Shown one piece after another: positions 19,299 to 61,506 of a stretch of DNA of 64,000 nt (positions within the stretch are counted from its first letter, which is position 1; each line of letters begins with the position of its first letter). Below the pieces are notes generated by a model that made no database searches, was not told the origin of the DNA, and worked only from the letters and a program-made list of their open reading frames with translations. This DNA is from Wickerhamiella versatilis (taxonomy: Eukaryota): the NCBI GenBank assembly GCA_030867685.1, contig JAQOWU010000001.1, positions 992,001 through 1,056,000 on the forward strand, given 5' to 3'. The position numbers and the translations under genes were made by a program.

Positions 19299-20162
19299 AT
19301 ATCGAAAGAAGAATCTTTTTATACATTTTCAAGTAGCGATAAAATGATATAGCATGTTTTTAAAGCAAATTGTTAAAAAAATCTTAGGAGAAAAAGCCAT
19401 ATTGGAAGAGGAGTAAGTTTAGGGTTCCGATGCAACCTGTCAAAGGCAATTAGGAAACAAGGCTTCAGATTCTTTCCAGCTTCAATTCGATTAGTTTGGC
19501 GAAAGACCCCAATGTGCTGAACTGCGCGGCAAAAGTCATTGAAAACTGATGTTTTAGTTTATTTGACCGATAACAGGGTTCAACCTTTTTCCTAGTTAGA
19601 TATTACAAAATAACCCACTTTGACCTACCGATAAGTAACTTAAAAGGATGTCAGAGGGTGTTTTTATTCGGTCTGAGTTCGTTAGTTTGAAAAATCAAGG
19701 CGTATACGGTATTTCAGATTGGCAATACCAGGGCTTCTTGAAAATGACAGTATCACATATACTACTTAAGTATTCCATTGCCGAAAAAGTTCTGATCTCT
19801 TATTTGAAGTCCGGGAGTTGGGACCAGATTCTTTTTATACTGTCTCAAGCAGCTAAATGATTTTTTTTTCGGAGATGCTGACAATTATATGAAGACGATT
19901 AAATATATCTATTGCTTGTCAGCTTCAAGGGGTTAACGTAAGCGCTGTTTCGTACAACTTACTAATAAGTAAAAAACAGGCCTAAATGTAAAAATCCGAT
20001 GACACCTAGAAATAATTTTGCGATATAACAAAATGAATATAAGCATGGACTTGCCGTTTACGTCCTCTTAGGGTGGCGAGCGCAACATGGGTGTCTCTCG
20101 GAACAGTCACAATTAAGTAACTTCGCATATTCTTATCGCACTTCCCAATTTACATAATCGTC

Positions 20163-21764: not shown

Positions 21765-22094
21765 TCTGTTCTTACATGAATAATAGTTAAACCCTTCGTT
21801 CTTCAGGCACCAAGTATTAATAACTAATAATGGCTATACTAATAATTATAATAATAATAACTAGTAATAAAATTACTTTATGCCACATTGTTGAGTAGGA
21901 TGTGTTGGGATAGTTTGAAAGGGATATGTCTAACAACTGTGATGGCTCGGTTCTGGGATCCTGCAAAAGTGTACTTCCAGCCATCGGTACCCATTTGGCC
22001 TCATGAATTTTAGGAGAGCTCCTACCATGAACTCTATATATTTAATTCATGGCAGGTCCCGTTCAGATATATCGGTTACTAATCAGCGTCCTGG

Positions 22095-23969
22095 ATGGCT
22101 AAGGCGAAGCCCAGGCCTCAGGCTTGCAGTTCATGCCGCTTAAGAAAATCCAAATGCGACATGGTTGAAACATTTCCATGCACAAACTGTCGACGAGCCT
22201 CGGTTCAGTGCACCAAGCCTTTAGTGGATAAGAGAACTATCCGGATAAGCTCAGATAGATCGAAACTACTGGAAGAAAAAGCGAATTCCTTAGAGCGCGA
22301 AAAATTGGATCTCATTACCTCTCAAGGAAATATATTGCAGCTCGCAAATAAAATTCAAAATTTTTCCCAGCAGATTAAGTTGGCTCTTGGAGATCGGCAT
22401 CTGCCAGACCCGCTGAAAAAACTACCAGAAGATTTTGAGCGTGAACTATCTCTTACTGGTAGCGAAATTGCTAGAAGTGAATCACTCTCTGTCTATGGTC
22501 CTAGCAGCTTATTCGATAATGAGCATGTCGAGGGCGCATCACAAGATGTGGTGGCTTTCAGATCCCGCAACCATGACCCTATAATTCTAAAATGCATCAA
22601 ATTATTTTTCATATGGCTATATCCAGACGTTCATCATTTCTTATATCGAGAAGCTTTTCTATTGGAATTTTTCCATCCGAAGCCCAATCTATACTATTGC
22701 TCAGAGGAACTCATTCTCGCAATATGTGCAATGGGATCCCGTATATCTAGAGACGATACCATATCTGCCATGTCGTTTGATTTCTACAATAGGTCAAGAA
22801 CAATCTGCTTGTCTAAAATTGACAAGCCATCCCTACCATTGCTCCAAAGTTTTTTGCTTCTGGGACTCTATGATATATATAACTGTCGGAATAATTCCGG
22901 ATGGATGCTGACGGGAATGGGATTACGTGTAGGTTCCACCATTGGATTTCATTTAGATCCACAAAACTGGTTCCTGCAATCGAACGAATGCGATGTTGGT
23001 ATCAGAAGTAGGATATTCTGGGGAGCTTATTTGGTCGATCATTTGACAGGTTTATTTTTGGGGCGTACACCAGTGCTTAAAATTCAAGAAGTATCCATAA
23101 TGGAGACAGCCAATCTTCCTGATATAACCTGGATTGATGCATTTACGTACCGTCGCCCTAATGAAAACCCCAAAACTTTAGAGATATCAGACCCCCTTAA
23201 GGCGTGTGTTCAGCTGATGAATATCGCGGAAAATATGCTGCAGGATGTTTTCAATGACCCCAAAAATTTGATGGCCAAATTCGATTTAGTCGCATTATAC
23301 AATCATGAGATTGTTGGGTGGCGAAATGATCTCCCAACCCATGCGCAATGGAACATCGAGACCCTTAGAATCGATGGCGATGACCCTTCGAGAATCACGA
23401 CTTGGCTATTATACTACATGATAATCCTTTGCCTGAACCGCCCTTTTATTTCGCACTCCCGGGCTGAGCAGGACGGGGGAGCCTCTAAGAGTTTTTCTCA
23501 GATTTGTGATACTGCAGTGGGCGAATTCTACGTGATTAATTGGGCTATTTTGAAAACGCATGGACAGCTCCGCTGCTCTTTTCTCGTTATTTATCTTTGC
23601 ATCTTATCAGCGACGGCTATTTTGGCATCCCACGAAAATATTATTTATCAGGAAGAGGCGCAGAGCGAATTAAAAGCTCAGTTCCTCACGTTCATCTATA
23701 CACTTAAGTCCTGCTCAAATATTTGGGAACTAAGTGGGAAGGCTTACAAGCTCATACAGGAAAAAGTCTACGATCGTTTGAAAGTTGATGTAGATCTTGA
23801 AATTCAAAAATCTGCCAAATTGAAAAACCTCAGTAATGAATTCTCGTGTGATTTTGATCGGTCTCGAATTGCTCGACAGCAAACTCGCGAGAAACACAGC
23901 AACCCATCTGTATCAGATGATTTCCTAGGCTGGGAGAATCTTTTTCAGGACATTAATTTCAACTTTTAG
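22095..23969 (+). CDS. Zn(II)2Cys6 transcription factor
   Basis: ACSSCRLRKSKCD...PCTNC...C zinc cluster and a fungal TF middle-homology region (RSRIFWGAYLVD). Confidence 0.93.
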   Translation: MAKAKPRPQACSSCRLRKSKCDMVETFPCTNCRRASVQCTKPLVDKRTIRISSDRSKLLEEKANSLEREKLDLITSQGNILQLANKIQNFSQQIKLALGDRHLPDPLKKLPEDFERELSLTGSEIARSESLSVYGPSSLFDNEHVEGASQDVVAFRSRNHDPIILKCIKLFFIWLYPDVHHFLYREAFLLEFFHPKPNLYYCSEELILAICAMGSRISRDDTISAMSFDFYNRSRTICLSKIDKPSLPLLQSFLLLGLYDIYNCRNNSGWMLTGMGLRVGSTIGFHLDPQNWFLQSNECDVGIRSRIFWGAYLVDHLTGLFLGRTPVLKIQEVSIMETANLPDITWIDAFTYRRPNENPKTLEISDPLKACVQLMNIAENMLQDVFNDPKNLMAKFDLVALYNHEIVGWRNDLPTHAQWNIETLRIDGDDPSRITTWLLYYMIILCLNRPFISHSRAEQDGGASKSFSQICDTAVGEFYVINWAILKTHGQLRCSFLVIYLCILSATAILASHENIIYQEEAQSELKAQFLTFIYTLKSCSNIWELSGKAYKLIQEKVYDRLKVDVDLEIQKSAKLKNLSNEFSCDFDRSRIARQQTREKHSNPSVSDDFLGWENLFQDINFNF

Positions 23970-24236
23970 TTCGATTATTTATTTATAGTGTTTGACACAA
24001 TGACTGATAAGGTGGTCTTGCAAAATTATATATTTTCGGGATTAGTTAAAAACTTAGCAGGAAGAGGAATGGGTCCTGCCTTACTTATAATTAGCACCCG
24101 AGATACTTATCATGTTTCATAAAGACTGTTAGCATATCTTTATGGAATACCGGTGGCAATTCACAAACTAAAGACTATTAAACCGATAGTAGGACTATTT
24201 TTATACTTAGCAGGTGGCATATCGCGAAACCTTCTT

Positions 24237-25556
24237 TTAATTAGCCATAAACCCCTCCTGTGCAGCAACTGCGAATGCCTGGTCAAGTATTCTAATGGCA
24301 TCGTTAATTTCGTCTTGGGAGACAGTTATAGGTGGTGCTAAGCGAAATACACCCCCCATACCGGGAAGACTTACTACATTACAAGACAACCCCTTCTCCA
24401 GCGCTATTGCACTGACCCGTGCTCCGATATGAGCACCTGGTGACTTGGTTTCACGGTTACTCACGATTTCTATGCCTTGCAATAACCCGCGTCCTCGAAT
24501 GTCGCCTACCTGTGGCCAGCGCGATTTAAGCCACTCTAGACCAATGCGCAATTGGTCACCCCGCTCAGCGGCATTACGAACCAACTGGTAGTCGTTGCGC
24601 TTCACAATTTCAAGAGCTTTCACACCAACGGCTGCAGTCAGCGGATCGTTAAGATGTGTAGTAAGCCATAGAAAGCCCGCTTCCCGAAGTTTACTCTCAA
24701 TATCATCGCTAGTTGTGACAGATGCCAATGGCAGCCCGCAGCCCAGGGTCTTAGATAGGCACAGGATATCCGGAACCACGTTCTCATACTCAAAAGCAAA
24801 AAGTTGGCCGGTCCTTCCTACCCCTGTTTGAGCCTCATCAAGTATTAATAGCATTTTGCGTTTGTCACATTCCGCACGCATTTTTTCTAAATACCCTTTT
24901 GGCAGGTCCAGAATCCCACCAGTAGACAATATTGGCTCCAAAATAAATGCCGCTAATGATCCTGTACTCTGAGCATCTACCAAACTCCACCCGAAGTCAA
25001 CCTCTTTTTCCCAATCCCATTCACCTTGATCGTTGCGGAAAGGCGATCTGTAGCGATTCGGAGTGGGGAAAGTAATTTGTCCCGGCATTACAGGACCTCC
25101 ACCTTTTCTACCCGCAGAGTACGTGGCAGCAGCTGCCGCACCTGTAAGACCATGATAACTTGCCGAAAAAGCGACAATCTCGTACTTTCCGGTAACCATT
25201 TTTGCCATTTTCAATGCTGCCTCAGTAGATTCCGATCCTGTATTTAGAAAGAAACTTCGTGACAGCGGTTGTGGGAGAACTTCGGCCAAGGATTTAGCCA
25301 GTTCCACCACCGGCTCGGTTACCATGTTGCTTAACAGGTGATCAAGTTTTCCAACTTGACTTGAAACAACACCCACAATCTCAGGGTGCGAATGACCCAG
25401 TAATGAGCTCATTTGTCCTGAGGTGAAGTCGAGAATTGTCTTACCATTGGAAGTGAAAAGCTTCGTTCCCTGCGCTGCCACTACTAACACTGGGCAGTAA
25501 GGAACCCCGGTATAACATAAATACTCTTTAGCCTCGGCGAAGAATGAATCATCCAT
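24237..25556 (-). CDS. Class III PLP aminotransferase, 2,2-dialkylglycine decarboxylase (DgdA)-like
   Basis: LDFTSGQMSSLLGH, EPILSTGG, LDEAQTGVGRTG and PDILCLSKTLG (PLP lysine). The GQMS and EPILSxGG motifs are typical of DgdA. Confidence 0.88.
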   Translation of the reverse strand: MDDSFFAEAKEYLCYTGVPYCPVLVVAAQGTKLFTSNGKTILDFTSGQMSSLLGHSHPEIVGVVSSQVGKLDHLLSNMVTEPVVELAKSLAEVLPQPLSRSFFLNTGSESTEAALKMAKMVTGKYEIVAFSASYHGLTGAAAAATYSAGRKGGGPVMPGQITFPTPNRYRSPFRNDQGEWDWEKEVDFGWSLVDAQSTGSLAAFILEPILSTGGILDLPKGYLEKMRAECDKRKMLLILDEAQTGVGRTGQLFAFEYENVVPDILCLSKTLGCGLPLASVTTSDDIESKLREAGFLWLTTHLNDPLTAAVGVKALEIVKRNDYQLVRNAAERGDQLRIGLEWLKSRWPQVGDIRGRGLLQGIEIVSNRETKSPGAHIGARVSAIALEKGLSCNVVSLPGMGGVFRLAPPITVSQDEINDAIRILDQAFAVAAQEGFMAN

Positions 25557-48074: not shown

Positions 48075-49162
48075 GATTACTTAATGTTGAGACAATCAAC
48101 TAATTCGCTACGTGAGACTCTCTCAAGCATATACCATATAGCCGCTTCTGGAATTCATACTCCTGAAATACTGAAGTGGTTATTCCATTGCCATATATTT
48201 TCACATCACTATATACAAATTGCATGGATGACGCGTAGGCAATAGGCATCGGGGGTGATTATTTGTGAAGAAATGATGACTAGCATACTTCAATAAGGAT
48301 CCTAAAGTCTCAACATAGGAGGGAAGGAATATGTACAGGCCGCTTTCGATTGCCAAGAATATACGTAACTTGTGGCTTGTACTATCATTAGCCTAGCTTG
48401 CTCATCGAGTTCAATATTAAGCAATAAGACATTTAAGATTCCAAAAAAATTGAACTGAACTACACGATTCAACTCTAAGTCTATATTATTGATGCACAAA
48501 ATAAAACATTTGTTTCGCAGGCCCTAACAGCGGATAAAAAATTTATAAGCTGTGAAGTAAGACCGGAGACGTCATATGATATTAAAATCTCGGATTATTA
48601 TTAATGTTGCATTAACGATACTTTCTGCCATATGAAATAAAAAATGAATGTCGGACTTTTCATGTTTAACGTACTAGCAAGCTACAATAAGAAGTTTTTT
48701 TATGACACGATAGAAGCTTTTTTTGTGGACGGTCGGCCCGAATTCGCTCATTCGCTGCTACTAATTCCATTCACCAATTTATAAGTGAATGAGAACACTA
48801 TGATTTATCACGGGTGAATTAAATATGCTGTGATGCCTTCAAACCCTACAATGCCTGTAACCTCCGGTTGCGCCCTGCAGACAATGTATTTATATCGAAA
48901 CAAGAGTAAATCTTAATAGTGCCAAAGAATTCAGGCTACCGAACCTATCACCTAATTTCAAGATTAAGCGACATACCACCGCCTAAGCTGTTCGGACAAG
49001 ATACATGAAAAAAACTACGGCATGGTATCATTCACACAGTCGTTGTATTCAGTAACGGTAAACCATATGTTTGATTGATAGTTGTTCGCAACCCTTTTAT
49101 GGTATAAATATATATTGGCCATTATTGAGCTCGTATAGATAAAAAAAAAGGAGTGAAGATAC

Positions 49163-50718
49163 CTATTCACCAAGGACTGAATTCACGTCGTACCCCTCGT
49201 CAGAAAGCAGATTTCGAAATTTAGCGTCCTGCTCCGCTGCTGATTGCTGGGTTAATTCTGGGAGGAGCAGTGAGATTACCGCTGAAAATAAGCAAAGTGA
49301 GGATGAGATGTAAAACAAAACTGAAATGCCCGTGTCACTGTCGACACCTCCGTATCGTCTAGCGATAGCTGGAAATGTATAGGATCCCGCCAAAGCTCCT
49401 GCCTTGCCCATAGCAGCAGCAAAGCCATAGCCACGGCCCCTGATTGGAGTAGGGACTGCCTTAGAGGCAATTAAAATAGTGTTGTCACCTGGTCCAGCCT
49501 CACCGAGTGCCGTAAAAATACCATAAACAACCACAAATGCACCTACGCTACTTCGTAGGCTGGGAAAGTATACCGCAGTTATAAATCCAATAATTCCCTG
49601 AAGGACTAAGCAGATCGTCAGCGTAAGTCGGGGTCCAAGCCAGTCTGCCGAGACCCCGCCAAGAAAAGTACCAGGTAGATAGAAAAAGTTGAATAAGATC
49701 GTCCAAGCAAAGGACTTGCGAATATCGGACTTACCATCGTCTGTTGTGGCAAGTGCACTGAGAATAAAAGGGTAATAAGCCCCCAGGAGTACGACAATGC
49801 ATCGTAAATGAACCATATCAGGGACACCAGGCCAATGGAGCCGCCCCAATGCTTGATCATCATACCATAGGGCTGCTTTACGCGACGCATAGAATTCGAT
49901 CGGAAATCGCGTGATTCTTGAAGCTTTACCCTCATCAACAGTAGAATGAAGGAGGGTACGGCACCGAGGCCTAATTGGAGTCGCCAAGCAGTTTGCATAC
50001 CGTGATCTGAACCTGCGGACGGAACACCACAGATGTACAACAATACCAATGCGACTATGCTTGATACAAAAAACCCAGTGTCCAAGGCGCTGCAAGTGGT
50101 CCAAATTACCCAGCGGTGGCGCGAACCAGCTTTGAATCGTGAGCTAGCCTCGGTGCACGCTGCTGAGCCACATGGGTATTCTCCGCCAATACCTACGCCT
50201 AAAAAGACACGCCACACTGATAGAGCTGCGAACATCCCTGCAGGATTCGTGGGCATGCCCAATCCCCATGATCCAGCGGCAAGAACAGAAAATAGTATTA
50301 GCATCAATGTGCACACAATTAGACCGGTCTTGCGGCCAATATGGTCAGACAGGAATCCAAATGTGAGCATCCCGACAATTGCTCCGGCATATCCAAGACC
50401 ACCAATATTTGACATAGCTACGTTTTTATCAAACGAAGAATCCCCATAGATAGTGGACAAAAACTGGGTCACAAAGCCTATACTATTGTTTAAGTACCCG
50501 TCGCTGAATAGCCCTGTTCCAGTTGCTATTACTTGCCAGTATCGTGAATGTTTCTCTTCCTCACCTTGGTTCTCGTAGTCATCCAAAGTCGAACTTGTGA
50601 TAATTTCATTGTGCTTCTCAATTGAGCTGGAATCGGCGGCATATTCCTTAATAGAGGACGTACCCATCCAGCTTGGAGGGTGTGCCTCTCTACGTAGCAT
50701 TTCAAGATAACGTTGCAT
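49163..50718 (-). pseudogene. GIT1/PHO84-family MFS (glycerophosphodiester/phosphate) transporter with a 1-nt frameshift at 49780-49784
   Basis: The N-terminal half (GLFSDGYLNN, SDHIGRK, GIGGEYP) and C-terminal half (FYLPGT, GEAGPGDN, PTPIRG, AAMGKAG) are in different frames. One extra G in the G5 run joins them as YSWG-AYYPF. This could be a homopolymer sequencing error. Confidence 0.85.
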
Positions 50719-50799
50719 ATCTCCTTATTTCGAAAAGCTATGCTAAATGGATTTTAGATCCACCAATTTATTATACCTTTTCTGCACGCATTTCTCTTC

Positions 50800-50871
50800 C
50801 CACGTGCTGCTGACATTATAAGTTCTACTTATACCTCATTATTACCTGGGTGTCAATCAATAAGCACGTGG
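50800..50871. promoter_or_regulatory. Two inverted Pho4-type boxes (AGCACGTGG)
   Basis: CCACGTGCT at 50800-50808 and AGCACGTGG at 50863-50871, in the divergent transporter/lysR promoter. Confidence 0.7.
50817..50833. promoter_or_regulatory. Candidate LysR operator, copy 1
   Basis: TATAAG-TTCTA-CTTATA: perfect 6-bp arms around a T-N11-A core. Confidence 0.65.
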
Positions 50872-50979
50872 TTACAGTGTCACGCAGGGATACATTTGAA
50901 ATTGATTACGTACTTCTTGTCATATTCCCCTACCCTTTTGGCAAGTCGCTCTAATCAGTCGTGCTGTCTCTATGTATGA

Positions 50980-51897
50980 ATGGGAGTTTCTCACACACAA
51001 CTTAAAGCATTCCATAGTGTTGCTTTGACAAAGTCATTTACTCGTGCAGCCCATTCACTCGGGATGTCGCAGCCTGCTGTCTCTGAACAGGTCCGCAAGA
51101 TGGAGGAACAATACGCTGTGCAGCTCTTCACACGATCCCATCGTACCATTTCTCTAACTCGAAAAGGCGAACAGCTTTTCCAACTAACTAGTAAGCTATT
51201 CTCAATGGAAGCTGATATCCAAGAATTATTGCAAGCAGGTGACTCTAAAAAATCTTTGACACTGGCTGTCGACTCCCCACGACATCTATCCGCATTTCTC
51301 GCTCTTTTTTGTCAGCTCTATCCCACAATTGAAGTTTCCTTGATTACAGGAAACTCTGAACAGAATCTGACTCGTCTTCTGTCCAGTGAAGCAGATGTTG
51401 CTGTGGTGGGTCGCAATCTTGAGACATCCAATCAGCAGAATCCCCAAATTGAGTCAATAGTCTTGAATGTTGCACCGATACTTTTGATGTGTGGAAGAAG
51501 TCACCCTTGGAGTCAACGAGTGAATGCCTCAAAAGCGGTAAGTATTAGAGAGCTTCGGGGTCAGACACTAGTTATGCGTGAGCGCGGATCGGCCACCCGA
51601 AAGCTTGTTGAGAATACCCTAGAAGCCCATAATATCGATGTTAGGTCAGTCATTGAGACCACTGGGCGTGAAGCTGACAATGACCTAGTGGCAGATGACC
51701 TAGGGGTTGGGTTTGTGTCTGCTGCTGAAAGTTATAGCGATATACGTATTGTGCTACTACAGTTGTATGATGCAGAAATAATTATGTATGAACGTCTAGT
51801 TTGGTTGAAGGAGAATACTAACAGCTGTACTGATTTGTTCGTGCAGCTAATTCAGGATGAGCGTTCCACATTATATTCTGATGGTTGGGTTTCTTAA
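50980..51897 (+). CDS. Bacterial LysR-type transcriptional regulator, AEP-catabolism-associated type
   Basis: Winged HTH (QLKAFHSVA..SFTRAAHSLGMSQPAVSEQVRKME) and substrate-binding domain (LAVDSP, TGNS, MRERGSATR, LGVGFVS). The N-terminus resembles the Pseudomonas LysR found beside phnWX, from memory. Confidence 0.93.
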   Translation: MGVSHTQLKAFHSVALTKSFTRAAHSLGMSQPAVSEQVRKMEEQYAVQLFTRSHRTISLTRKGEQLFQLTSKLFSMEADIQELLQAGDSKKSLTLAVDSPRHLSAFLALFCQLYPTIEVSLITGNSEQNLTRLLSSEADVAVVGRNLETSNQQNPQIESIVLNVAPILLMCGRSHPWSQRVNASKAVSIRELRGQTLVMRERGSATRKLVENTLEAHNIDVRSVIETTGREADNDLVADDLGVGFVSAAESYSDIRIVLLQLYDAEIIMYERLVWLKENTNSCTDLFVQLIQDERSTLYSDGWVS

Positions 51898-51912
51898 TTC
51901 AATTACTCACTA

Positions 51913-52718
51913 TTAACATAGTCCCTCAGGTGATTGACCTGCTGCCAGGCACTCATTTATTTCTTCAATAATATTCGGCAGTTCTGCTACGGTGTTAACG
52001 TAGAAATGGGGACGTGAAGACTTAAGGTGCTTCTTCACGTGTAAACAGGCCCGATTCTGCTGCTCCTTATCAAGAGCATCCCACTGACTTAGTGTCATTC
52101 CCATATTGTTACTGAACCCGAGAACTGCTACTGTCCACATTCCGGCATGTCTGCCCTCAAGAATACCAGGTGCAGTGTCATCCACTTTGACACAAGCGGA
52201 GACGTCCTCAACGTTAAGCTTAATGACGTTGAGTAATGCTTGCGCTGGCCATGGTCGTCCACGTGGTACATCATCACTTGCGACCCAGTAGTCTGGTTTA
52301 TATCCAGCTGCCGCTGATAAGTTGACCACGCGCTCCATTGCGGCTCGAGGGTATCCTGAGCATGTTCCAATTTTTATGTTGTGGGACTTTAACCAAGAAA
52401 CTGTCTCCAGAGTTCCGGGTATTAATTTTGAGTAGTCTGCTATGGTCTCGATCTGTAAAGGCAAGAACCGACTGTATACTGAGAGCCAAATTTCTTCTCC
52501 CACCTTTCTCTGATGGTGTCATCGGCTAGAAGAGCCCGAATATGATCAATTTTAGCCATACCCATAGGTCCGCGTGCTTCCACGAGGGAAATCTCAATTC
52601 CGACAGCTGCAAAAGCATCCACAAACACTTGTGTGGGGGCAAAACAACCAAAATCTATCGTACTACCAGCCCAATCAAAAATTACGGCCTCTAAAGCCTT
52701 TGTTTTAATGTATTTCAT
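51913..52718 (-). pseudogene. phnX: Phosphonoacetaldehyde hydrolase (phosphonatase), frameshifted near 52485
   Basis: 5' part from ATG 52718: IFDWAGSTIDFGCFAP and EARGPMGMAK (Schiff-base Lys). 3' part, in another frame: RFLPLQI, CSGYP, GRPWPAQAL and VKVDDTAPGILEGRHAGMWTV. Confidence 0.93.
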
Positions 52719-52774
52719 TATGTGCACTAATCTAGCTATGATATATATGGGTATATATATGCATCTGAGCTTAC

Positions 52775-52791
52775 TATAGGCTGAACTTATA
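52775..52791. promoter_or_regulatory. Candidate LysR operator, copy 2
   Basis: TATAGG-CTGAA-CTTATA. Confidence 0.7.
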
Positions 52792-52823
52792 CGTATGCAA
52801 GTAACCTCGCGTTCATCTGTAAG

Positions 52824-52840
52824 CATAAGCTCAGCCTATA
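52824..52840. promoter_or_regulatory. Candidate LysR operator, copy 3 (inverted relative to copy 2)
   Basis: CATAAG-CTCAG-CCTATA. Its reverse complement, TATAGGCTGAGCTTATG, matches copy 2 at 15/17 positions. Confidence 0.7.
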
Positions 52841-52930
52841 CTAGTTGATAATCCCCTTACCCAGTATTTTTAAAAGATACTGAACAATCCTAATCTTATT
52901 TAACTGCGATAAATCAGGAAAGAGGTCTTT

Positions 52931-54025
52931 ATGACGATTCTTCTAACTCCCGGCCCGCTCACGACCTCCCGGCAAACGCGAGATGCCATGATGGTCGATT
53001 GGGGTTCAAGAGATAGCGATTTCACAGGCATGTGCGCGACTATCTGTAAACAGCTGATCGACATTATCAATGGCGAGAAAACGCACGTATGCGTACCACT
53101 TCAAGGTAGTGGGACGTTTGCGGTCGAGGCTGCTTTGGGTACACTGGTTTCGCCCAAGGGCGATGCCATTCTAATCCTCAGTAACGGTGCTTATGGTAGG
53201 CGTATGAAACAGATATGTGACAAAATATGCCGCAAAAGTTTTATTATTGAATGGCCAGAAAGCGAAGTCACAGACCCGACAACTGTCGATAGCTATTTGA
53301 CGTCCCACCCTGAAGCGACCCATGTCGCTCTGGTACACTGTGAGACAAGCGTAGGTATCATGAATCCATTACATCAAATTGCGAAAGTGGTAGAAAAACA
53401 CAAAAAAAAGCTGATTGTTGATGCAATGAGCTCTCTGGGGGCTCTTCCGATAGACGTAACGGCTCACCCAGCAATTATTGCGGTAATAGCCGCTAGCGGA
53501 AAATGTCTCGAAGGAGTTCCAGGGATGGCATTTGTGCTCGTAAATAGGCTGAACCTGCTTAATTGTAAAGATAACGCTCATTCTATTGTACTCGATCTCT
53601 ACGATCAGTTTGTGGTAATGGAAAGAACTGGACAGTGGCGCTTCACCCCACCGACGCATGTCGTCGCTGCGTTGCATTCGGCCTTGTCTCAGTTCATTTC
53701 TGAAGGTGGTCAAAAAGCTAGGTTGGCTCGATACCAGCGCAACATGGATACTTTAAGCAGTGGGCTCGATTCTCTCGGCATCAAACGCTATTTGCGTAAT
53801 GAGAACCAAGCACCAATTATCATGACATGCTACACCCCAATTAGCAACACCTGGGACTTCAACAAGTTCTACAATCTTACTCGCTCCAAAGGCTTTGCCC
53901 TCTACCCTGGAAACCTGACGGCGGCCAGTACCTTCCGTGTTGGTTGTATTGGTGATGTTCAGCCTGAAGACTTGGAAGCCGCCGTCGATGCCATACGTGC
54001 TTCATTGAATGAATTGGGTATCTAG
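52931..54025 (+). CDS. phnW: 2-aminoethylphosphonate:pyruvate transaminase
   Basis: ILLTPGPLTTS, LQGSGTFAVEA, NGAYG, HCETS, DAMSS, SGKCLEGVPG (PLP Lys), QWRFTPPTHVV and FRVGCIG; adjacent to phnX. Confidence 0.96.
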   Translation: MTILLTPGPLTTSRQTRDAMMVDWGSRDSDFTGMCATICKQLIDIINGEKTHVCVPLQGSGTFAVEAALGTLVSPKGDAILILSNGAYGRRMKQICDKICRKSFIIEWPESEVTDPTTVDSYLTSHPEATHVALVHCETSVGIMNPLHQIAKVVEKHKKKLIVDAMSSLGALPIDVTAHPAIIAVIAASGKCLEGVPGMAFVLVNRLNLLNCKDNAHSIVLDLYDQFVVMERTGQWRFTPPTHVVAALHSALSQFISEGGQKARLARYQRNMDTLSSGLDSLGIKRYLRNENQAPIIMTCYTPISNTWDFNKFYNLTRSKGFALYPGNLTAASTFRVGCIGDVQPEDLEAAVDAIRASLNELGI

Positions 54026-54268
54026 AGTAACACAAGACAGCTCTATATTATATACAGGAGATTGCAATATATGCATATAAATTAATACAATATAATGCGA
54101 TCTGAAGCTAGAAAGGTGTGCTACAGTGCTGCTTGTACTCATATCTAATGTTTTATAGTAAGACAATTAAATTGTGGTACCGCTTAGCGTAAGCACGATA
54201 TAACCCTTGCCCAAATGGCGGAACTATTTAATGTATAAGTGGTTAGACTCTTTGTAGACCCAACACCA

Positions 54269-55246
54269 ATGCAGAAAAGCGATATGACGTCGATTACTAC
54301 AAAAGAAGACAATCAACCTCTGGAGCGAAGTCCAAGCGAAAAGCATTCAACTGAGATTGGAAGTCCAAACACGCTAACTATTTCTAGCAATTCCAGTTCA
54401 AACGAACAGGATATCAAGAATTTGGGGGATCCAATGAATGCACTCTCCCTTGCTGATAGCTCAGAAAATTCGGATGATGAAGATCCTGAAGAACTTGATA
54501 ATCTGGAGAAGTGGCATGAAGCGATGCTCCACCGTGCCGCGTGGAAAGAGTGGGTTCAAGAAATGTGGGAGGAAATTTTTGAGGAAGAGATATCGGAGGA
54601 TGAGGAAGAGTCATCGCACGTAGAAAGAGATTATGAAAACAGATCTCACGAAACTCCAGAGCCCAGGGGGCCATCAGCAGGTATTGCCGAATACGAGCGG
54701 GTACGCATGGCCGATGGAAGTACCAAAATGGTAAAGGACTTAGTTAGGGGCGACTTTGTCATGGGTCCCCATGGTAATCCTGTGGAGGTTAAAGATGTGA
54801 AAAGAGGATATAGTCAGCTCTACGAAGTATCTGTTCCAAATGATAATGGAATCGGAAGGCGAAAGGTAGCAGTCGGTGCTAGACAGCCATTTAAGCTATC
54901 AATTGAGCAGTGCAATTTACGACCCGTTCATGTTTTGGCTCAAGGAAACAACAAGCCCCGGTACGAGGTGACTTACCGTAGCCTTACTCGAGAAAGAGTA
55001 GAGGCCGGGAAAGGTGATTTTCGCCAGGTCACAAAGGTGCATGAGACTACTATATTTGAGTCATATGACTCTAAAACTTCTCATATACTGGCGTCTACCC
55101 CAGAAGAGGCGAAATATCGGCTATGTAAAAAGCTTTATGCCAATCTACCCAGAGATACTAATGGTAAGATATGTACCAGACTTCAGTGGATAGCTGAGGC
55201 ACGTGACTTAAATCTTCATAAACCCCCTTGCATGATCCACATGTAG
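54269..55246 (+). CDS. Truncated free-standing VDE/HO-like intein (Hint) domain protein with an acidic N-terminus
   Basis: GIAEYERVRMADGSTKMVKDLVRGDFVMGPHGNPVEV...RGYSQLYEV resembles the N-terminus of the VMA1 intein and HO. LQWIAEARDL resembles VDE FEWTIEARDL. The ORF stops before any LAGLIDADG motif. Confidence 0.78.
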   Translation: MQKSDMTSITTKEDNQPLERSPSEKHSTEIGSPNTLTISSNSSSNEQDIKNLGDPMNALSLADSSENSDDEDPEELDNLEKWHEAMLHRAAWKEWVQEMWEEIFEEEISEDEEESSHVERDYENRSHETPEPRGPSAGIAEYERVRMADGSTKMVKDLVRGDFVMGPHGNPVEVKDVKRGYSQLYEVSVPNDNGIGRRKVAVGARQPFKLSIEQCNLRPVHVLAQGNNKPRYEVTYRSLTRERVEAGKGDFRQVTKVHETTIFESYDSKTSHILASTPEEAKYRLCKKLYANLPRDTNGKICTRLQWIAEARDLNLHKPPCMIHM

Positions 55247-55615: not shown

Positions 55616-57415
55616 ATGACCTCAGGGTTAAGGGGTTACAGGTCTAGAAGGTGTCGACCATGTGACTCGTGTCGAGCCAAGAAGACATATTGCCATTTGG
55701 ATGGAGCACCACCCTGTCGGTTGTGTCGCCAGCAGAATCGACAATGCACATTCGTCTTTGGGCCCATTCGGAAGACGACAAGGCAAAAAATCAAGTCAAT
55801 TAGGAATGAAGAAATCCCGGAAGTGCCAGGAAATCCATTCGCCCTCGAATTATGTCCTCCTACAGCTGATAGCTCATTGCAGGATATCCTTACAGCAAGA
55901 ATTCCAGATACTGGGATATCTAATCTAGAACTTCAAGCACAATCGGCATTTATTCATCCAGAAGATAAATTGTCCCTTTCAAAGAAACCTAATAAGTCAC
56001 ATCAGTTGTGCGGGTGGACTGGAGAATCATGTCCGCACCTCCTTGGATGCTACAGCTACGATGATGTGGATGAACATAAGTTCAATAAAGTTTCATTTCG
56101 CAAAATTAGTGAAAATCCCCCTGTTTACTTTATGTTAACAGATAAAGAATTAACGAGGAGTCTTTTCGGCGACGAACGTGACCAGAATAAACTACTGAGA
56201 GCTCAGCTCGAACAATTAGTGCCTTTTGAAGAAGGAAGGCATTTTGTACAACTATTTTTCAGATATGTTCATCCATCAATTCCTGTGCTATGCCAAACAG
56301 CTACACTCGAGGATCTATACTCCATCCCGACCGGTATACTAGCTGCAATGTATTTATTAGCGCTTCCTTTCACACTTTTTGAGCCCAAAATAGCATCACA
56401 CTCATATTCTGCTTATCAACCGCCTTCGAGTAAAGAACTTTTTGATATAGGCTGCAGGTGTTATAATCTTCAGTCTCACACTCCAGATATATCTACAGCT
56501 CAGATTGCATTATTATTGCTACAAACAGAGCCACTATATCCATATTTTTCCGACACTGCTTTCATTTCGCAGTTTGTCTCTTCCCTATACTCTATATCAC
56601 AAACGCTTGGGTTAAACGTTGATTGCTCCGGATGGAATATACCAGCCTGGGAGAAAAAAATCCGTAAAAGGGTATGGTGGTCTGTATATTGTACAGAAAA
56701 ATGGCAGTCTTTCGTATGTGGCAGATCTAGTCACATAAATGATGATGACTGGGATATTGCAATGTTCACAAAAGACGACTTTGAAACACCTCTAAACTAT
56801 CACTTTTTAATTTTGTGCTCACTATCATTAATATTATCAGACTCTCTTTGCCAGATGTATTCCTTGCGCGCAGTGAAGAAAAGACTTGTTGATGTTGAAG
56901 GCAGTCTTCAATTAACTAAGGATTTAATTGCTCGAGTTCGCAACCTTTACCGCACTTTCGAGCCTCACATTCAGATGGATCATGTAAAACCTGCAACTTT
57001 AACAGTTACTGGCTCATTATTTCTATGTTTTTTGGGACTTGAGCTGGCGCTTGTCAAGTCATATGTTGAAATCTCAAGTTATGATATTGACAATAAGTGT
57101 ACTGCAACTCCAAAATATATGGCAACAAAATTACTCAACTTCATGAGAAGTCTAAAAGTTGAGCACACAAAAGCATTCTGGTATTCATGGTGTCATCAAA
57201 TATTTTCATCGGCCAGCAGTTTTTTTGCTTTCTTTGCATTGTCTCCAACTTCATTAGATGCAGATTTTGATTTCAAATCTTCGCTAGATGATTGGAGATC
57301 GCTCTTACAGATTCATGCTGGTAGTTTTTCTCCTGTGCGCTTGGGGCTCGGTCGTCTGGATGGATGGGTTGGGTTAGAGAAGCTTTCAAGTTCTCCAGGG
57401 ACCTCCAATCATTAA
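55616..57415 (+). CDS. Zn(II)2Cys6 transcription factor, Dal81-like
   Basis: RPCDSCRAKKTYC...PCRLC...CTF, LFFRYVHPSIPVL, LGLNVDCSGWNIPAWEKKIRKRVWW and AFWYSW. Confidence 0.9.
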   Translation: MTSGLRGYRSRRCRPCDSCRAKKTYCHLDGAPPCRLCRQQNRQCTFVFGPIRKTTRQKIKSIRNEEIPEVPGNPFALELCPPTADSSLQDILTARIPDTGISNLELQAQSAFIHPEDKLSLSKKPNKSHQLCGWTGESCPHLLGCYSYDDVDEHKFNKVSFRKISENPPVYFMLTDKELTRSLFGDERDQNKLLRAQLEQLVPFEEGRHFVQLFFRYVHPSIPVLCQTATLEDLYSIPTGILAAMYLLALPFTLFEPKIASHSYSAYQPPSSKELFDIGCRCYNLQSHTPDISTAQIALLLLQTEPLYPYFSDTAFISQFVSSLYSISQTLGLNVDCSGWNIPAWEKKIRKRVWWSVYCTEKWQSFVCGRSSHINDDDWDIAMFTKDDFETPLNYHFLILCSLSLILSDSLCQMYSLRAVKKRLVDVEGSLQLTKDLIARVRNLYRTFEPHIQMDHVKPATLTVTGSLFLCFLGLELALVKSYVEISSYDIDNKCTATPKYMATKLLNFMRSLKVEHTKAFWYSWCHQIFSSASSFFAFFALSPTSLDADFDFKSSLDDWRSLLQIHAGSFSPVRLGLGRLDGWVGLEKLSSSPGTSNH

Positions 57416-58015
57416 ATAAATAGCATTTCAGAGATCCCTTTGATACTGTTTGTAACCCCATTCTGTCCCAAGGATGAAAGGTGCTATTTGCCAAATTAGC
57501 AGAAGTACTCCCTAGATTTCACATAGTTTACGAAACATTCTAGTTTTCTCACAATGAAAAGAAATATCAATACAAAAAGTAGTTGGAATCTAGCTGACCT
57601 ATACAGTCATTGGAGATCGCGAAATGAAGAATTTCTTTGGCTGTATTGGAGAGAGAATTGAAGCATTAATCTTTTCTGGTTCTTAGCATCCATCCCCCTT
57701 TGTTACCTAGACGGATACTGACTTGGCTGTAATCATCGTAATCATAAGGAATGAACTAAAATCTTATAATATTTCTAACTATCTAAATAGTGGTAACCTC
57801 GTTCAGACAAATGCCGCTACCAGGAGTGGAATAAATCTTCATTAAACTGAGCAATAAGATATTGGAATGCACCGCAAAGAATGTCTTGTTCCTCTATTTC
57901 TCTCGTAGCATATGCAAGAAGACCCATATGACTGATATCATGTATTTATAACAGTCATTTGAAGAGGGAAATAAACCCCCTATTTCTCGGGTAATGTACG
58001 CATTCTATTCCCGTA

Positions 58016-59818
58016 CTACGAATCAATGACGCCGGAATTCATTCGCTCCTCTTTAGCCACATTGTCATTTAGTTCCATATACTGTAATTCTCGTTTGTCA
58101 TAACCTTTAAAAATCATCCAAAAGAGAATAGCTACAATGAAAATTGATACACCCAAGCCAGCATATAACCACAGAATATCTGGGTTTTTGGAGACTGTGG
58201 AAAGCGCTATTCCAATGATCGCACCACCGGCATTGGTCAATAAGAATAGAGACATCACTATACTTTTCATACTTGCAGGCGAATGGTCGAAGGTTATTAT
58301 ATACCCACCAAGCGCACCCATCAAATCTGCAAAAGCTAAGAGTAGGTAACCAGGAGTTTGTATGGCAACATGGATGTGATTAGGTACCGCAGGGCCTAAA
58401 GAGCACCGAGAATCCGAAGGAAATTTGTAACAAGGCCCTCTTGAATATATAATTTTTTGTATTATCGCTGAGTAGACCATCGTTAACGAGCAAAAGAAAA
58501 ATCCAATCGATACTCGCGTTATCGGCAACATAGGAAACCCCAGCTTACGCAGTAATGGAAAGCCAAATTGATTCATCAGTGGAATCAAGATTATAACAGC
58601 AATAGGTTCAATATTCTGCATGATATCATTAGGAATAGCATGTGTTTCCATTTGTCCTGCTTGCGAGATAAGATTAGAGGTACCTTGATCGTAAGCTACC
58701 CAAAAAATTGGAAAAAATAGCAGTATTTTGCAACCATCAATAGCTCGAGCTACTTCATCAACGAACAGATCCGTCCAAGGTACGTCACTTAATCCCTGAC
58801 TAGCCCGCACAGAGGGCCTGGCTATATCAAGAGAAAACTTTGCTTTGAATCTTTTCCGCCATTGACGGAATCTCAGCGCATACGTAGTATTTTCGCTTTC
58901 GCATGACTCACTTGCATCGAATACATTCAAATTCTTGCATCTCGAATTATCGTGTGAGAGCCCTTTTTTGATTGCTAGATTTACGATCGAAAACGTATCT
59001 TTGAGTATGCCTGCCTTGGGCTCACGGTTCACGTATATTTTATGACCCGACAATACCGTTATAATAGCCACCGGAAACATTGCAAATGGCAAGAGATATG
59101 CGGCCCAGAAGTCAACGTACTTCTCAAGTTCTGGTGTGGCAATCGAAGACAAGGATCCTGAACAAATACATATATAGAATACTGAGAAAATATAACGTAC
59201 TGTTATAGCTGGATCTACTATTACCCGCTCACCGGATCTCAAAGTCTTGACATAGAGCTTGGTATTTTTGTATTGCTCGATAACCAATGTGCTGACGTTT
59301 GGCTTAATCCCTCCAGCGGCAAGACCTACTACCACCATGAACGCTATGAGGCCGCCTTCACCTGCTGTATCCATGTACTGGGGAAGCGAGGTTACAAACA
59401 GAATCATAATCCCCACTACGTACAGACAGGAGAAGGCTACAATGGTTCTGTATTTTCCCAACCATAAATCAGCAATTGCCGCACCAGCGAGTGGCGTCGC
59501 ATAACACCAAAACTTGAAGAAATTACTGAGAGCAGTAGCCTTGCTTTGTCCAAGACCAAGTCCACCAGTTTGCCTATCGTTTTCTCTCGGCAGTTGGATA
59601 TAGTTTTGGATTACAGCGTTCAACCCGTAAAACGTAAAACGTTCAGCAAACTCGCAGGCTGCAATTAGAAAAGGCCCTAAGTTTACCTTGTCACGAATTC
59701 TTCGCAGCTTGGCTAGTTCTTCATCTGAGGGATAAGGATACGCATCATCCACTGAGCCTATGCTAAGACTCCCAACTTCTTCACTTTCGCTTATTTGGAC
59801 TTTCTCGAGTTTCTGCAT
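58016..59818 (-). CDS. PTR2: POT-family di/tripeptide transporter
   Basis: EFAERFTFYG (ExxERF), GGIKPNVS, QAGQM and PASMKS; about 12 TM segments. Confidence 0.92.
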   Translation of the reverse strand: MQKLEKVQISESEEVGSLSIGSVDDAYPYPSDEELAKLRRIRDKVNLGPFLIAACEFAERFTFYGLNAVIQNYIQLPRENDRQTGGLGLGQSKATALSNFFKFWCYATPLAGAAIADLWLGKYRTIVAFSCLYVVGIMILFVTSLPQYMDTAGEGGLIAFMVVVGLAAGGIKPNVSTLVIEQYKNTKLYVKTLRSGERVIVDPAITVRYIFSVFYICICSGSLSSIATPELEKYVDFWAAYLLPFAMFPVAIITVLSGHKIYVNREPKAGILKDTFSIVNLAIKKGLSHDNSRCKNLNVFDASESCESENTTYALRFRQWRKRFKAKFSLDIARPSVRASQGLSDVPWTDLFVDEVARAIDGCKILLFFPIFWVAYDQGTSNLISQAGQMETHAIPNDIMQNIEPIAVIILIPLMNQFGFPLLRKLGFPMLPITRVSIGFFFCSLTMVYSAIIQKIIYSRGPCYKFPSDSRCSLGPAVPNHIHVAIQTPGYLLLAFADLMGALGGYIITFDHSPASMKSIVMSLFLLTNAGGAIIGIALSTVSKNPDILWLYAGLGVSIFIVAILFWMIFKGYDKRELQYMELNDNVAKEERMNSGVIDS

Positions 59819-60118
59819 AACAAATCACTTGCCACCTAGATGTATTCGCTCTGTTCTCCAAATATAATATAACTTATCTATTTGTCGCTGATAGCACGCT
59901 TATATCAGTAGGGGTAAGGGGGTTTCACTGACCGCAGGTCTCACTGCCCGACGAGCAGTGATTATTATATAACAAATTTCTAGATAGGCAAGTGCTGATA
60001 TTTATCGAAGGTGAAAATCACAAATAACATTCATAAATAAGTAAACCAGATAGTATTGAGAGTCTTAATGTCGCATTAGGTTCATAAGGCACGTGAATGG
60101 CGTTCATTAGATAATATA

Positions 60119-60130
60119 GGTCACGTGACC
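60119..60130. promoter_or_regulatory. Palindromic E-box GGTCACGTGACC (Cbf1/Tye7-type)
   Basis: 12-bp perfect palindrome in the divergent PTR2/amine oxidase promoter. Confidence 0.5.
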
Positions 60131-60228
60131 GGGAAACGCCGGGCGATCGGGGAGCAGCTAATGATGTATAATGACTAGTATCTATAAGCAGTATATATCA
60201 TGGTGCTAGTCGTCTTCTTGTTCCTTCA

Positions 60229-61506
60229 ATGCCACGAGTAGTTATTATCGGTGCCGGCTTATCCGGACTTTCAGCTGCCAGCTCTTTATCTCAAATTGTG
60301 AAGGAAAACCTGGAAGTGATTGTGCTTGAAGCTCAGGATTACATTGGCGGTAGAGTGAAGACAGTGAAGCTGGGTAACCGTTCCTTCGACTTGGGAGCCT
60401 CAAGGCTTCACGACGCGGAGAAAAATTTCCTGTATCATAAAGCTATAAAAGAGGGCCGGCGTTATATATATGATGATCTTAGCACCTGCTATTTTGTACA
60501 TGAAGCACCGGTTACTCCTGCCGTCGACAATGTGTCTGAAGCCTTGATAGATGATATGGAAAAGCACAGAGGAGAATACATAAATACAAGCCTCAAGGAT
60601 GTTCTTTGTGCAAGAGCACCAAAAACTTTAGATGGTGAAATTGCTGCCCAGAAGATACGTGCTATTAGAATTGGGAGCGGCATATCTTGGAAAGATATGC
60701 CAGCAACAAATTTCAGTCGTGCTTCAACTCGCCAGAGTCGGAATGCGTTCAGCGTTGACGGGAATAAGTGGATAGTTGACTGGCTACTCTCGGAAGTAAC
60801 CGCGGAAATACGATTAAATAGTCCAGTGAGGGAAATCCACCCCCAAAAAGTCGTTTTATATTCAGACGAGGAGATAAGCTTTGACTATGCCATATGCACA
60901 ATTGCTGCTGGAGGCTTGGATCCTAGTATGTTCCGCTTTGATCTTCCCCCGGATCTTCATAAAGCAATGGGGGAGGAGACCACAGGGACTCTAGGCAAAG
61001 TTCTATTTGAATTTCCAACAAGATTTTGGCCGCTTGACTTTTATCGTTTCACTACTCTTACTTTGGAAATATCTGAGGATATAAAACCAGGTGGATTTCC
61101 TGTGAATTTTACAAACGCTTATAACCTTGCAGATCCGGATGCACCTCCTACTCTTATGGCATTTACCACTGCTCCATTAACGCATTTTCTAGAATCAAAT
61201 CCCGAAAAAGCTTATGAATACTTGCTTCCAGCGCTAAATTCTCTACGTGAGGACATGACCCTCCCTGTTCCAAAGCCTACTGAGGTAGTGGTCACAGATT
61301 GGACACAAAAAAAGTGGTTCAGAGGTAGCTACAGCGGAATAAAAGTAGGAGAGCAAAAGGATCAATATATAATTCCTTACTTGAAGGGAGTTGGTAACAT
61401 ACGTTTTGCTGGGGATCATACTGGGCTTGACGACCGTGGCATGGATGGTGCCATTGAGACAGGCAGAAGAGAGGCAAAAAATATAGCTAAAATGCTAGGG
61501 CACTAG
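60229..61506 (+). CDS. Flavin-containing amine oxidase (Fms1/Cbp1 polyamine-oxidase-like)
   Basis: IIGAGLSGLSAA, EAQDYIGGRV, DLGAS, RGSYS and FAGDHT...GAIETGRREA. Confidence 0.9.
   Translation: MPRVVIIGAGLSGLSAASSLSQIVKENLEVIVLEAQDYIGGRVKTVKLGNRSFDLGASRLHDAEKNFLYHKAIKEGRRYIYDDLSTCYFVHEAPVTPAVDNVSEALIDDMEKHRGEYINTSLKDVLCARAPKTLDGEIAAQKIRAIRIGSGISWKDMPATNFSRASTRQSRNAFSVDGNKWIVDWLLSEVTAEIRLNSPVREIHPQKVVLYSDEEISFDYAICTIAAGGLDPSMFRFDLPPDLHKAMGEETTGTLGKVLFEFPTRFWPLDFYRFTTLTLEISEDIKPGGFPVNFTNAYNLADPDAPPTLMAFTTAPLTHFLESNPEKAYEYLLPALNSLREDMTLPVPKPTEVVVTDWTQKKWFRGSYSGIKVGEQKDQYIIPYLKGVGNIRFAGDHTGLDDRGMDGAIETGRREAKNIAKMLGH

Follow-up and report, generated by a model that had tools for sequence, protein, structure and literature searches.

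The stretch of DNA analysed here, referred to as the window, comprises 64,000 nucleotides (64 kb) of the yeast Wickerhamiella versatilis (GenBank assembly GCA_030867685.1, contig JAQOWU010000001.1, positions 992,001 to 1,056,000 of the forward strand), and all coordinates given below are those of the window. At 49.1-54.1 kb, it carries a 2-aminoethylphosphonate (AEP) cluster of four genes, one of which, lysR, encodes a LysR-type regulator of bacterial type. The first-pass annotation of this DNA, made from the sequence alone, had proposed that this regulator was retained together with three putative operators in yeast promoters. The genes of the cluster are:

49163-50718, minus strand: gene for a Git1-family transporter (glycerophosphodiester-type) of the major facilitator superfamily (MFS), frameshifted here by a 1-nt deletion at about 49771.
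50980-51897, plus strand: lysR, encoding an AepR-type LysR regulator, intact, 305 aa.
51913-52718, minus strand: phnX, encoding phosphonoacetaldehyde hydrolase, broken here by a 25-bp deletion after 52478.
52931-54025, plus strand: phnW, encoding 2-aminoethylphosphonate:pyruvate transaminase, intact, 364 aa.

The transporter gene and lysR are divergent and separated by 261 bp, phnX and phnW are likewise divergent and separated by a 212-bp promoter region (52719-52930), and lysR and phnX converge. The stop codons of the latter two genes are 15 bp apart (51898-51912), so that each transcript must run into the other gene at its 3’ end, and antisense or interference effects are possible. Both divergent intergenic regions contain copies of a 17-bp dyad, TATARG-N5-CTTATR, referred to here as Boxes 1 to 3, together with a few further elements:

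50801-50806 and 50865-50870, no strand assigned: two CACGTG E-boxes, flanking Box 1 in the transporter/lysR promoter.
50817-50833, both strands: Box 1, TATAAGTTCTACTTATA, TATAAG-N5-CTTATA, a perfect 6+6 palindrome in the transporter/lysR promoter.
52765-52773, plus strand: partial copy, CTGAGCTTA, abutting Box 2 and identical to positions 7-15 of Box 3 on the minus strand.
52775-52791, plus strand: Box 2, TATAGGCTGAACTTATA, TATAGG-N5-CTTATA, 57 bp upstream of the phnX ATG.
52824-52840, minus strand: Box 3, TATAGGCTGAGCTTATG, TATAGG-N5-CTTATG, 91 bp upstream of the phnW ATG.
52772-52795 and 52820-52843, no strand assigned: inverted repeat holding Boxes 2 and 3, with 24-nt arms that match at 20/24 positions.

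From Box 1, the distance to the ATG is 99 bp on the transporter side and 147 bp on the lysR side. The centres of Boxes 2 and 3 are 49 bp apart, and the inverted repeat that contains them forms a symmetric bidirectional promoter core: as read from the sequence, the two boxes are placed symmetrically, each preceding a TATA-like stretch by 20-30 bp, and a TATATATA-type stretch lies between Box 2 and phnX. Inspection of the sequence and a pattern search of the 64 kb both recovered the three dyads at the positions first annotated, and the partial copy and the length of the phnX/phnW promoter were likewise as described. The degrees of likeness initially reported were correct for Boxes 2 and 3 (15/17), while those for Boxes 1 and 2 (14/17) are obtained only when one of the two is inverted, the direct comparison giving 13/17.

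The exact pattern TATARG-N5-CTTATR, which was defined post hoc so that the enrichment figures overstate its significance, produced 4 matches at 3 sites in the window where 0.04 were expected, and 0 of 100 dinucleotide shuffles of the window reached 4 matches. When one mismatch was allowed, 5 matches were obtained (1.89 expected), all on the same three sites. The shorter core ATARG-N5-CTTRT is also present at exactly three sites in the window, all within the cluster promoters. LysR-type regulators bind dyads with a T-N11-A core; the dyad core found here, ATARG-N5-CTTAT, corresponds to ATA-N9-TAT and contains such a T-N11-A.

The boxes were compared with the upstream regions of bacterial genes encoding relatives of the regulator. 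The comparison drew on 587 candidate stretches, 560 of which encode a LysR relative; the best 80 were taken, and 102 loci overall entered the core-pattern count. A conserved block was observed upstream of aepR, the bacterial regulator gene, in 79 of the 80 loci with the closest LysR relatives. Nearest to aepR, as a rule at a distance of 11-17 nt from its start codon, this block contains the dyad ATAAG-N5-CTT(A/G)T, in which the arms hold most of the information and the three central positions of the spacer little. The core of the dyad, ATARG-N5-CTTRT, is shared by 74 of the 102 loci, almost always beside aepR; this family dyad is a feature derived here by comparison and has no published definition. 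Two bacterial layouts were observed. In one (15 loci), the regulator gene is divergent from phnW, which is followed by a GlpT/PgtP-like MFS gene and then by phnX. In the other, the regulator gene is divergent from a GlpT/PgtP-like MFS gene alone, and the adjoining phnWX genes have a divergent regulator gene of their own, a more distant paralog. A related dyad is present in register in 26/26 loci of the type with the phnW-adjacent paralog, and two of these loci (L014 and L016) match the full 17-nt TATARG-N5-CTTATR exactly.

Across the bacterial aepR promoters (L001-L080, about 50 nt upstream), a near-invariant ATAAATAAAATCGATTTAT-type block accompanies the ATAAG-N5-CTTRT dyad, the two centres being 29 bp apart. 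As far as sequence goes, this pair looks like an activation-site/recognition-site pair. The layouts agree with what the accessible text of PMC9311074 describes for Pseudomonas putida BIRD-1, namely two regulators, AepR-P and AepR-WX, and a transporter, AepP; the same text attributes substrate-dependent induction of phnWX in P. putida to AepR.

In an independent test, 47 unique bacterial 17-mers were aligned by means of a separate anchor, without use of the yeast sequence, and turned into a weight matrix with which both strands of the window were scanned. Among about 64,000 positions, Box 3 ranked 1, Box 2 ranked 2 and Box 1 ranked 6, all three being situated within the 473 bp of cluster promoters that make up 0.74% of the window. 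Box 3, which reads CATAAGCTCAGC... on the plus strand, shares 12 consecutive identical nucleotides with the commonest box upstream of aepR in Pseudomonas. Matrices for two other conserved bacterial promoter blocks gave no matches in the yeast cluster promoters, suggesting that only the dyad survived and that the rest decayed. The dyads match the dyad beside bacterial aepR genes and are picked out of the 64-kb window by a matrix of bacterial sequences alone, and are thus not a generic TATA-like artefact. Together, these comparisons provide good support for the yeast boxes being homologous to operator-type sites of the AepR family.

The lysR gene is intact and full length, as first annotated, with a 305-codon open reading frame (ORF) that aligns to positions 1-269 of the 279 of the TIGR03339 (phn_lysR) model at 254.3 bits; the next family scores 139 bits, a margin of more than 110. 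Pfam identifies an HTH_1 domain (PF00126, 74.7 bits, residues 6-64) and a LysR_substrate domain (PF03466, 94.6 bits, residues 92-294). The closest proteins are one with a single difference, encoded on a 400-kb contig, two that are 95% identical, and one of 304 aa that is 65% identical and encoded on a 3.5-kb contig; the 95%- and 65%-identical relatives we infer to be from other yeasts. The best named bacterial matches are from Pseudomonas, at 43-45% identity. A maximum likelihood tree of 42 rows was computed, comprising the odd-numbered hits only and nine phnW-adjacent paralogs translated from their loci. In this tree, the three yeast proteins form one clade (100/100), which is sister to a gammaproteobacterial clade of aepP-adjacent AepR proteins (95/86). 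The phnWX-adjacent AepR type is separate from the yeast clade but belongs to the larger group that contains it, with seven more distant LysR proteins outside. Both the best-matching family and the position within the AepR radiation agree with the initial description of the regulator as bacterial and AEP-associated. A metagenome scan with an alignment restricted to the yeast LysR proteins returned 22 loci, all taken as bacterial, and no close relative of yeast LysR; 20 of them are at 26-43% identity and the other two are short partial matches (residues 7-74) at 44% and 41%.

Several features point to constraint on the regulator. At 74 columns conserved in bacteria (at least 90% in 46 relatives), yeast LysR keeps 64 residues and its 65%-identical relative keeps 60. 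Identity between these two yeast lineages is 77% in the winged helix-turn-helix domain versus 61% in the effector domain, and the recognition-helix stretch SQPAVS-QVRK is common to bacteria and almost unchanged. Yeast-specific features consist of two small insertions and a short C-terminal tail, acidic/aromatic, which is unrelated to bacterial tails and has 10 of its 15 residues kept between the two yeast lineages; one might speculate that this tail helps activation. No recognisable eukaryotic activation domain was seen in LysR beyond it. Intact lysR ORFs are present in three lineages (100/95/65% identity).

Strains were compared using Logan contigs of four sequencing runs (X1, X13, X16 and X19) over 49000-54200. 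The numbers are small, 40 of the 50 differences between the window and the other strains having been classified. Among the differences listed, lysR shows 3 synonymous and 0 non-synonymous lineage differences, one private change excepted, and the synonymous/non-synonymous counts are 4/7 for phnW, 1/3 for phnX and 4/9 for the transporter gene. These sequence comparisons give signs that the regulator is under purifying selection. The private change is at position 51677, where the window has A and X1, X13, X16 and X19 have T; it introduces V233D at a conserved position of the window LysR and may be either a strain mutation or an assembly error.

The same comparison clarified the state of phnX and the transporter gene. 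In the window, phnX matches TIGR01422 as two fragments (108.8 and 137.4 bits, model positions 2-74 and 128-251), below the full-length cutoff of 220, and its frame changes after model position 74 with about 6 model positions missing. In X13, a strain at about 1% divergence, a further 25 nucleotides follow 52478 and restore a 276-aa ORF for phnX; the X13-type PhnX aligns without gaps over 274 aa to Pseudomonas PhnX, at 52%. The frame of the transporter gene changes at about 49771, and X13 has one extra A behind 49771, resulting in a 518-aa ORF that aligns without gaps to a 525-aa protein of the sister lineage (P0129, 96% identity). X1, from which the window DNA may derive, and X16, from another study, carry the same shorter forms of phnX and the transporter gene as the window. 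Two other explanations of the frame breaks were considered and rejected. Introns do not account for them, since sequence is missing rather than inserted and X13 has the 25 + 1 nt in frame; assembly error does not account for them either, the deletions being the same in X1 and in X16 of a different study. Thus, the window lineage carries real loss-of-function deletions in phnX and the transporter gene, and an intact four-gene cluster exists elsewhere in the population. In the window strain, the circuit first proposed is not retained in full: lysR, phnW and the boxes are present, but phnX and the transporter gene, which are intact in X13, are broken. The first-pass annotation had noted neither these two frameshifts nor the D233 of LysR. 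Near-identical DNA was also observed in runs X1-X20, labelled as food-fermentation, food and sediment metagenomes and coming from 10 studies; from this spread, the yeast would be widespread in fermented foods, with both broken and intact alleles in circulation. None of the 22 runs listed was an RNA run.

The transporter has Pfam Sugar_tr/MFS_1 matches on both halves. After the sister lineage, its best matches are at 47-48% identity, the best named one being from Wickerhamiella sorbophila (48%), and many of its relatives are fungal proteins annotated as glycerophosphoinositol/glycerophosphodiester permeases. Its host-derived origin, as proposed in the first-pass annotation, is supported by these sequence relationships, which suggest a fungal member of the Git1 family. 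PhnW scores 494.9 bits against NF010006 (cutoff 296) and 450.9 against TIGR02326 (cutoff 400.8). Its closest bacterial proteins, P0249 and P0250 (62-63% identity to PhnW, 80% to each other), are members of a small group of enterobacterial type that some Salmonella enterica records annotate, whereas Pseudomonas PhnW proteins are at 53-57%. As PhnW is nearest to this Salmonella-type group and LysR is nearest to Pseudomonas, the donors may differ or be unsampled.

The surroundings of the cluster are those of a yeast chromosome. The window is fungal and yeast-like, gene-dense, 41% G+C, with no obvious introns in long ORFs, and domain searches identified genes for Zn2Cys6/Fungal_trans factors, a PDR-type ABC transporter, a sterol glucosyltransferase, PTR2, an aspartyl protease and a hybrid histidine kinase. 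The genes of bacterial origin have native fungal neighbours on both sides, and the cluster was recovered in independent assemblies: a 59-kb Logan contig of X1 spans 49000-54200 whole, X16 contigs from another study cover this interval piecewise, and in the sister lineage (95% LysR) the genes for LysR, the transporter and PhnW are together with flanking fungal genes on one 85,971-nt contig. G+C content at third codon positions is 0.38-0.49 in the acquired genes versus 0.34-0.44 in native genes, in or just above the native range, suggesting that the transfer is old. From its sequence, the locus appears to be a real and ancient acquisition, a bacterial AEP utilisation module remade as yeast genes with operator-type sites probably retained.

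The CACGTG motif is found 11 times in the 64 kb, 2 of these in the 261-bp transporter/lysR intergenic region; the copies near Box 1 are putative Pho4/Cbf1-type sites and a candidate host input to this promoter. A second CACGTG pair (60090-60095 and 60122-60127) is located between PTR2 (58016-59818, minus strand) and a flavin amine oxidase gene (60229-61506), and 4 of the 11 motifs in the window fall in these two promoters. The segment adjoining the cluster at 55616-61506 contains genes for a Zn2Cys6-type factor (Fungal_trans), the PTR2 peptide transporter and the flavin amine oxidase; it may be a native nitrogen/amine utilisation neighbourhood and could relate to AEP as a nitrogen source. Directly 3’ of phnW, a 325-aa ORF (54269-55246, plus strand) has an acidic, Ser-rich N-terminus followed by a Hom_end-associated Hint domain (PF05203, 39 bits, residues 145-314), and resembles a free-standing intein or homing-endonuclease-like remnant adjoining the acquired cluster. 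Another possible catabolic cluster was seen at 18459-25556 (class II aldolase, purine-cytosine-type permease, Zn2Cys6 factor and class-III aminotransferase). A tRNA scan of the 64-kb window found none.

These results lead us to favour, with a probability of roughly 0.55, a reading in which the locus is a rebuilt AEP module, its dyads are operator-type sites of the AepR family, and strains with the intact cluster show a LysR-dependent response to AEP. According to this model, the dyads would correspond to the high-affinity site adjoining aepR in bacteria. The fungal Git1-family transporter would take over the position that AepP has in bacteria, its gene being divergent from that of the regulator with a box in between, and the inverted 24-bp duplication would have put one box before phnX and one before phnW, each followed by a TATA-like stretch. 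Wherever strains have kept the cluster intact, dimers or tetramers of LysR are predicted to bind the boxes in the nucleus and to make transcription of the transporter gene, phnX, phnW and probably lysR itself responsive to AEP or to a downstream metabolite, while host inputs such as the flanking CACGTG boxes would act alongside. Regulation of yeast promoters by a LysR protein is plausible by analogy: as described in the accessible text of PMC6943132 (see also its reference 18), BenM acts as a ligand-dependent activator in Saccharomyces cerevisiae when its operator benO is placed in a weak, truncated CYC1 promoter. A more far-reaching version of this model is that an AepR-type sensor and its operators were domesticated jointly in the yeast nucleus, where they gate RNA polymerase II promoters by AEP, with the operator duplicated for a bidirectional promoter, a Git1-type transporter recruited, host CACGTG phosphate-type inputs layered on top and some strains losing the system. 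To this fuller account we would give somewhat less than an even chance.

A number of observations weigh against the favoured reading. The LysR score is below the TIGR03339 cutoff of 341.1, as are those of the two relatives we attribute to yeasts (263 and 267), while bacterial relatives score 358-376, and the yeast LysR clade sits on a long stem of 1.55 changes per column; from these two features, the DNA or ligand specificity of yeast LysR may have drifted. Reading of the alignment revealed no obvious nuclear localisation signal in LysR. Three overlapping ATGs in three frames are present at 50972-50982 (at 50972, at 50976 and, as the lysR start, at 50980), and the two out-of-frame ones, which precede the lysR start by 8 and 4 nt, are expected to depress translation, or to subject it to regulation, if the transcript starts upstream. 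No AepR binding site is described in the accessible text of PMC9311074 (‘binding site’, 0 occurrences), the bacterial operator being deduced here from comparison. Box 1 is identical in X13, X16 and X19 and Boxes 2 and 3 are unchanged in X16, a conservation seen among strains about 1% diverged and thus of little power; the X13 contig, in addition, has one further, unplaced difference somewhere in 51642-54081. Because Boxes 2 and 3 are inside the 24-nt inverted duplication, their mutual likeness may reflect duplication and not selection. The matrix derived from the phnW-adjacent paralog ranks the three sites only 13, 16 and 36. Finally, phnX and the transporter gene, two of the three presumed targets, are pseudogenes in the window strain, and LysR has the private V233D there: in this strain, the module is decaying.

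That the dyads are a coincidence of AT-rich yeast promoters, unrelated to bacterial operators, is very improbable in our view. It is true that the 17-nt pattern was chosen after the fact, that a best matrix score of at least 16.7 was reached in 15% of 200 dinucleotide shuffles, and that about 3 sites at or above 12.4 are expected by shuffling versus 5-6 seen. Such scores are not rare in themselves and the argument rests on position; here, the bacterial-only matrix puts its top two matches in the 212-bp promoter and its rank 6 match in the 261-bp promoter, the exact and core patterns have no other match in the 64 kb, and Box 3 has its 12-nt identity with the commonest Pseudomonas box. A more serious competitor, though still unlikely, is that the dyads do descend from AepR operators but now serve as core-promoter or TATA-like elements, or do nothing, with LysR kept for another purpose or being lost and host factors running the genes. 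The half-sites are indeed TATA-like, TATAAG...CTTATA reading as TATA-like on both strands of a bidirectional promoter, and the boxes are 57-147 bp from start codons. The frequency of comparable scores in shuffled AT-rich sequence, the visible decay of the cluster (the 25-bp and 1-bp deletions and the private V233D), the host-type CACGTG flanking Box 1 and the upstream ATGs before lysR would all fit with it, and bacterial LysR activators normally work through bacterial RNA polymerase. Yet the second half-site and the N5 spacing, unneeded for TATA function, are kept in all three copies, and separate TATA-like stretches are present between Boxes 2 and 3 and their genes. The dyad, moreover, persisted and multiplied while the other bacterial promoter blocks disappeared. 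Across a protein divergence of 35%, LysR and chiefly its DNA-binding domain have been conserved, the strains show 0 non-synonymous lineage differences in lysR, and LysR regulators can activate yeast promoters (PMC6943132, accessible text).

The sign of the regulation might also be the opposite of that assumed, LysR being a ligand-relieved repressor or roadblock that hinders the pre-initiation complex until AEP alters DNA bending or occupancy. LysR proteins stay bound to DNA with and without inducer and change its bending; the location of Boxes 2 and 3, 20-30 bp upstream of TATA-like stretches, would suit a roadblock, as would the want of a recognisable eukaryotic activation domain other than the short acidic/aromatic tail. 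Subsite switching by BenM, described in the accessible text of PMC6943132, is compatible with this idea too. However, the engineered LysR regulators reported there for yeast are activators, and AepR activates phnWX in Pseudomonas according to the accessible text of PMC9311074, and we regard a repressor as improbable, if less so than coincidence.

The closest known counterparts are the AepR systems of P. putida BIRD-1 and other bacteria. They belong to the same family as yeast LysR, with best matches at 40-45% identity; in both cases the regulator is linked to phnW, phnX and a transporter gene and is divergent from its neighbour, and in the bacteria an ATAAG-N5-CTTRT dyad is located between the regulator gene and the transporter gene or phnW. 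The yeast cluster differs in being on a fungal chromosome, with the operon split into single genes and phnX inverted against phnW, in having a fungal Git1-family MFS transporter in place of the OPA-family (AepP-like) one, and in the absence of the second promoter block (the ATCGATTTAT region) from its promoters. The BenM/benO biosensor has N7-spaced dyad arms, the same geometry as the yeast boxes, but is synthetic and of proven activity, whereas the yeast cluster arose naturally and is known here from its sequence (PMC6943132, accessible text). Another parallel is the enterobactin operon, the horizontal transfer of which into Wickerhamiella/Starmerella yeasts has been reported (10.1101/399394; PMC10690196, accessible text of both). 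It is likewise a bacterial multi-gene pathway that took on eukaryotic gene structure and was joined by a fungal transporter gene (PMC10690196); in the accessible text of that paper, neither a bacterial regulator nor an operator is described (‘transcription factor’ and ‘binding site’, 0 occurrences), while the AEP cluster has a regulator gene and operator-type sites.

The initial statement that LysR-type regulators are essentially absent as nuclear regulators in fungi needs to be softened. The accessible main text of PMC13376923 counts bacterial-derived ‘gene-specific transcription activators’, unnamed there, among Wickerhamiella xenologs: six in W. versatilis and one each in W. domercqiae and Starmerella bombicola. 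That text mentions ‘LysR’ and ‘phosphonate’ 0 times and describes no cognate binding sites; its gene lists are in supplements, and an overlap with lysR is possible. That a eukaryotic nuclear genome has kept a bacterial regulator along with its cognate operators appears to be undescribed, within a literature search that did not extend to the supplements of PMC13376923. This search found no work combining LysR with Wickerhamiella, the sole paper that brings together LysR, Saccharomycotina and horizontal gene transfer being unrelated. For phnW/phnX or AEP with yeast, it returned only studies of bacteria and reports, at the level of enzymes, that moulds use AEP.

It is generally held that what eukaryotes gain from bacteria by gene transfer is enzymes and not their regulation, bacterial promoters and regulators not being expected to work with eukaryotic transcription. 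If the favoured reading is true, the AEP cluster of W. versatilis would be the first case found in nature where a bacterial transcription factor and its cis-elements were transferred to a nuclear genome and still function together there, and would show how an operon can be re-wired into bidirectional eukaryotic promoters. It would also provide a naturally optimised LysR sensor for yeast synthetic biology, a natural counterpart of the synthetic LysR biosensors. Strains with intact and broken alleles coexist, which makes the claim directly testable, and a demonstration of function would establish a new category of eukaryotic gene regulation.

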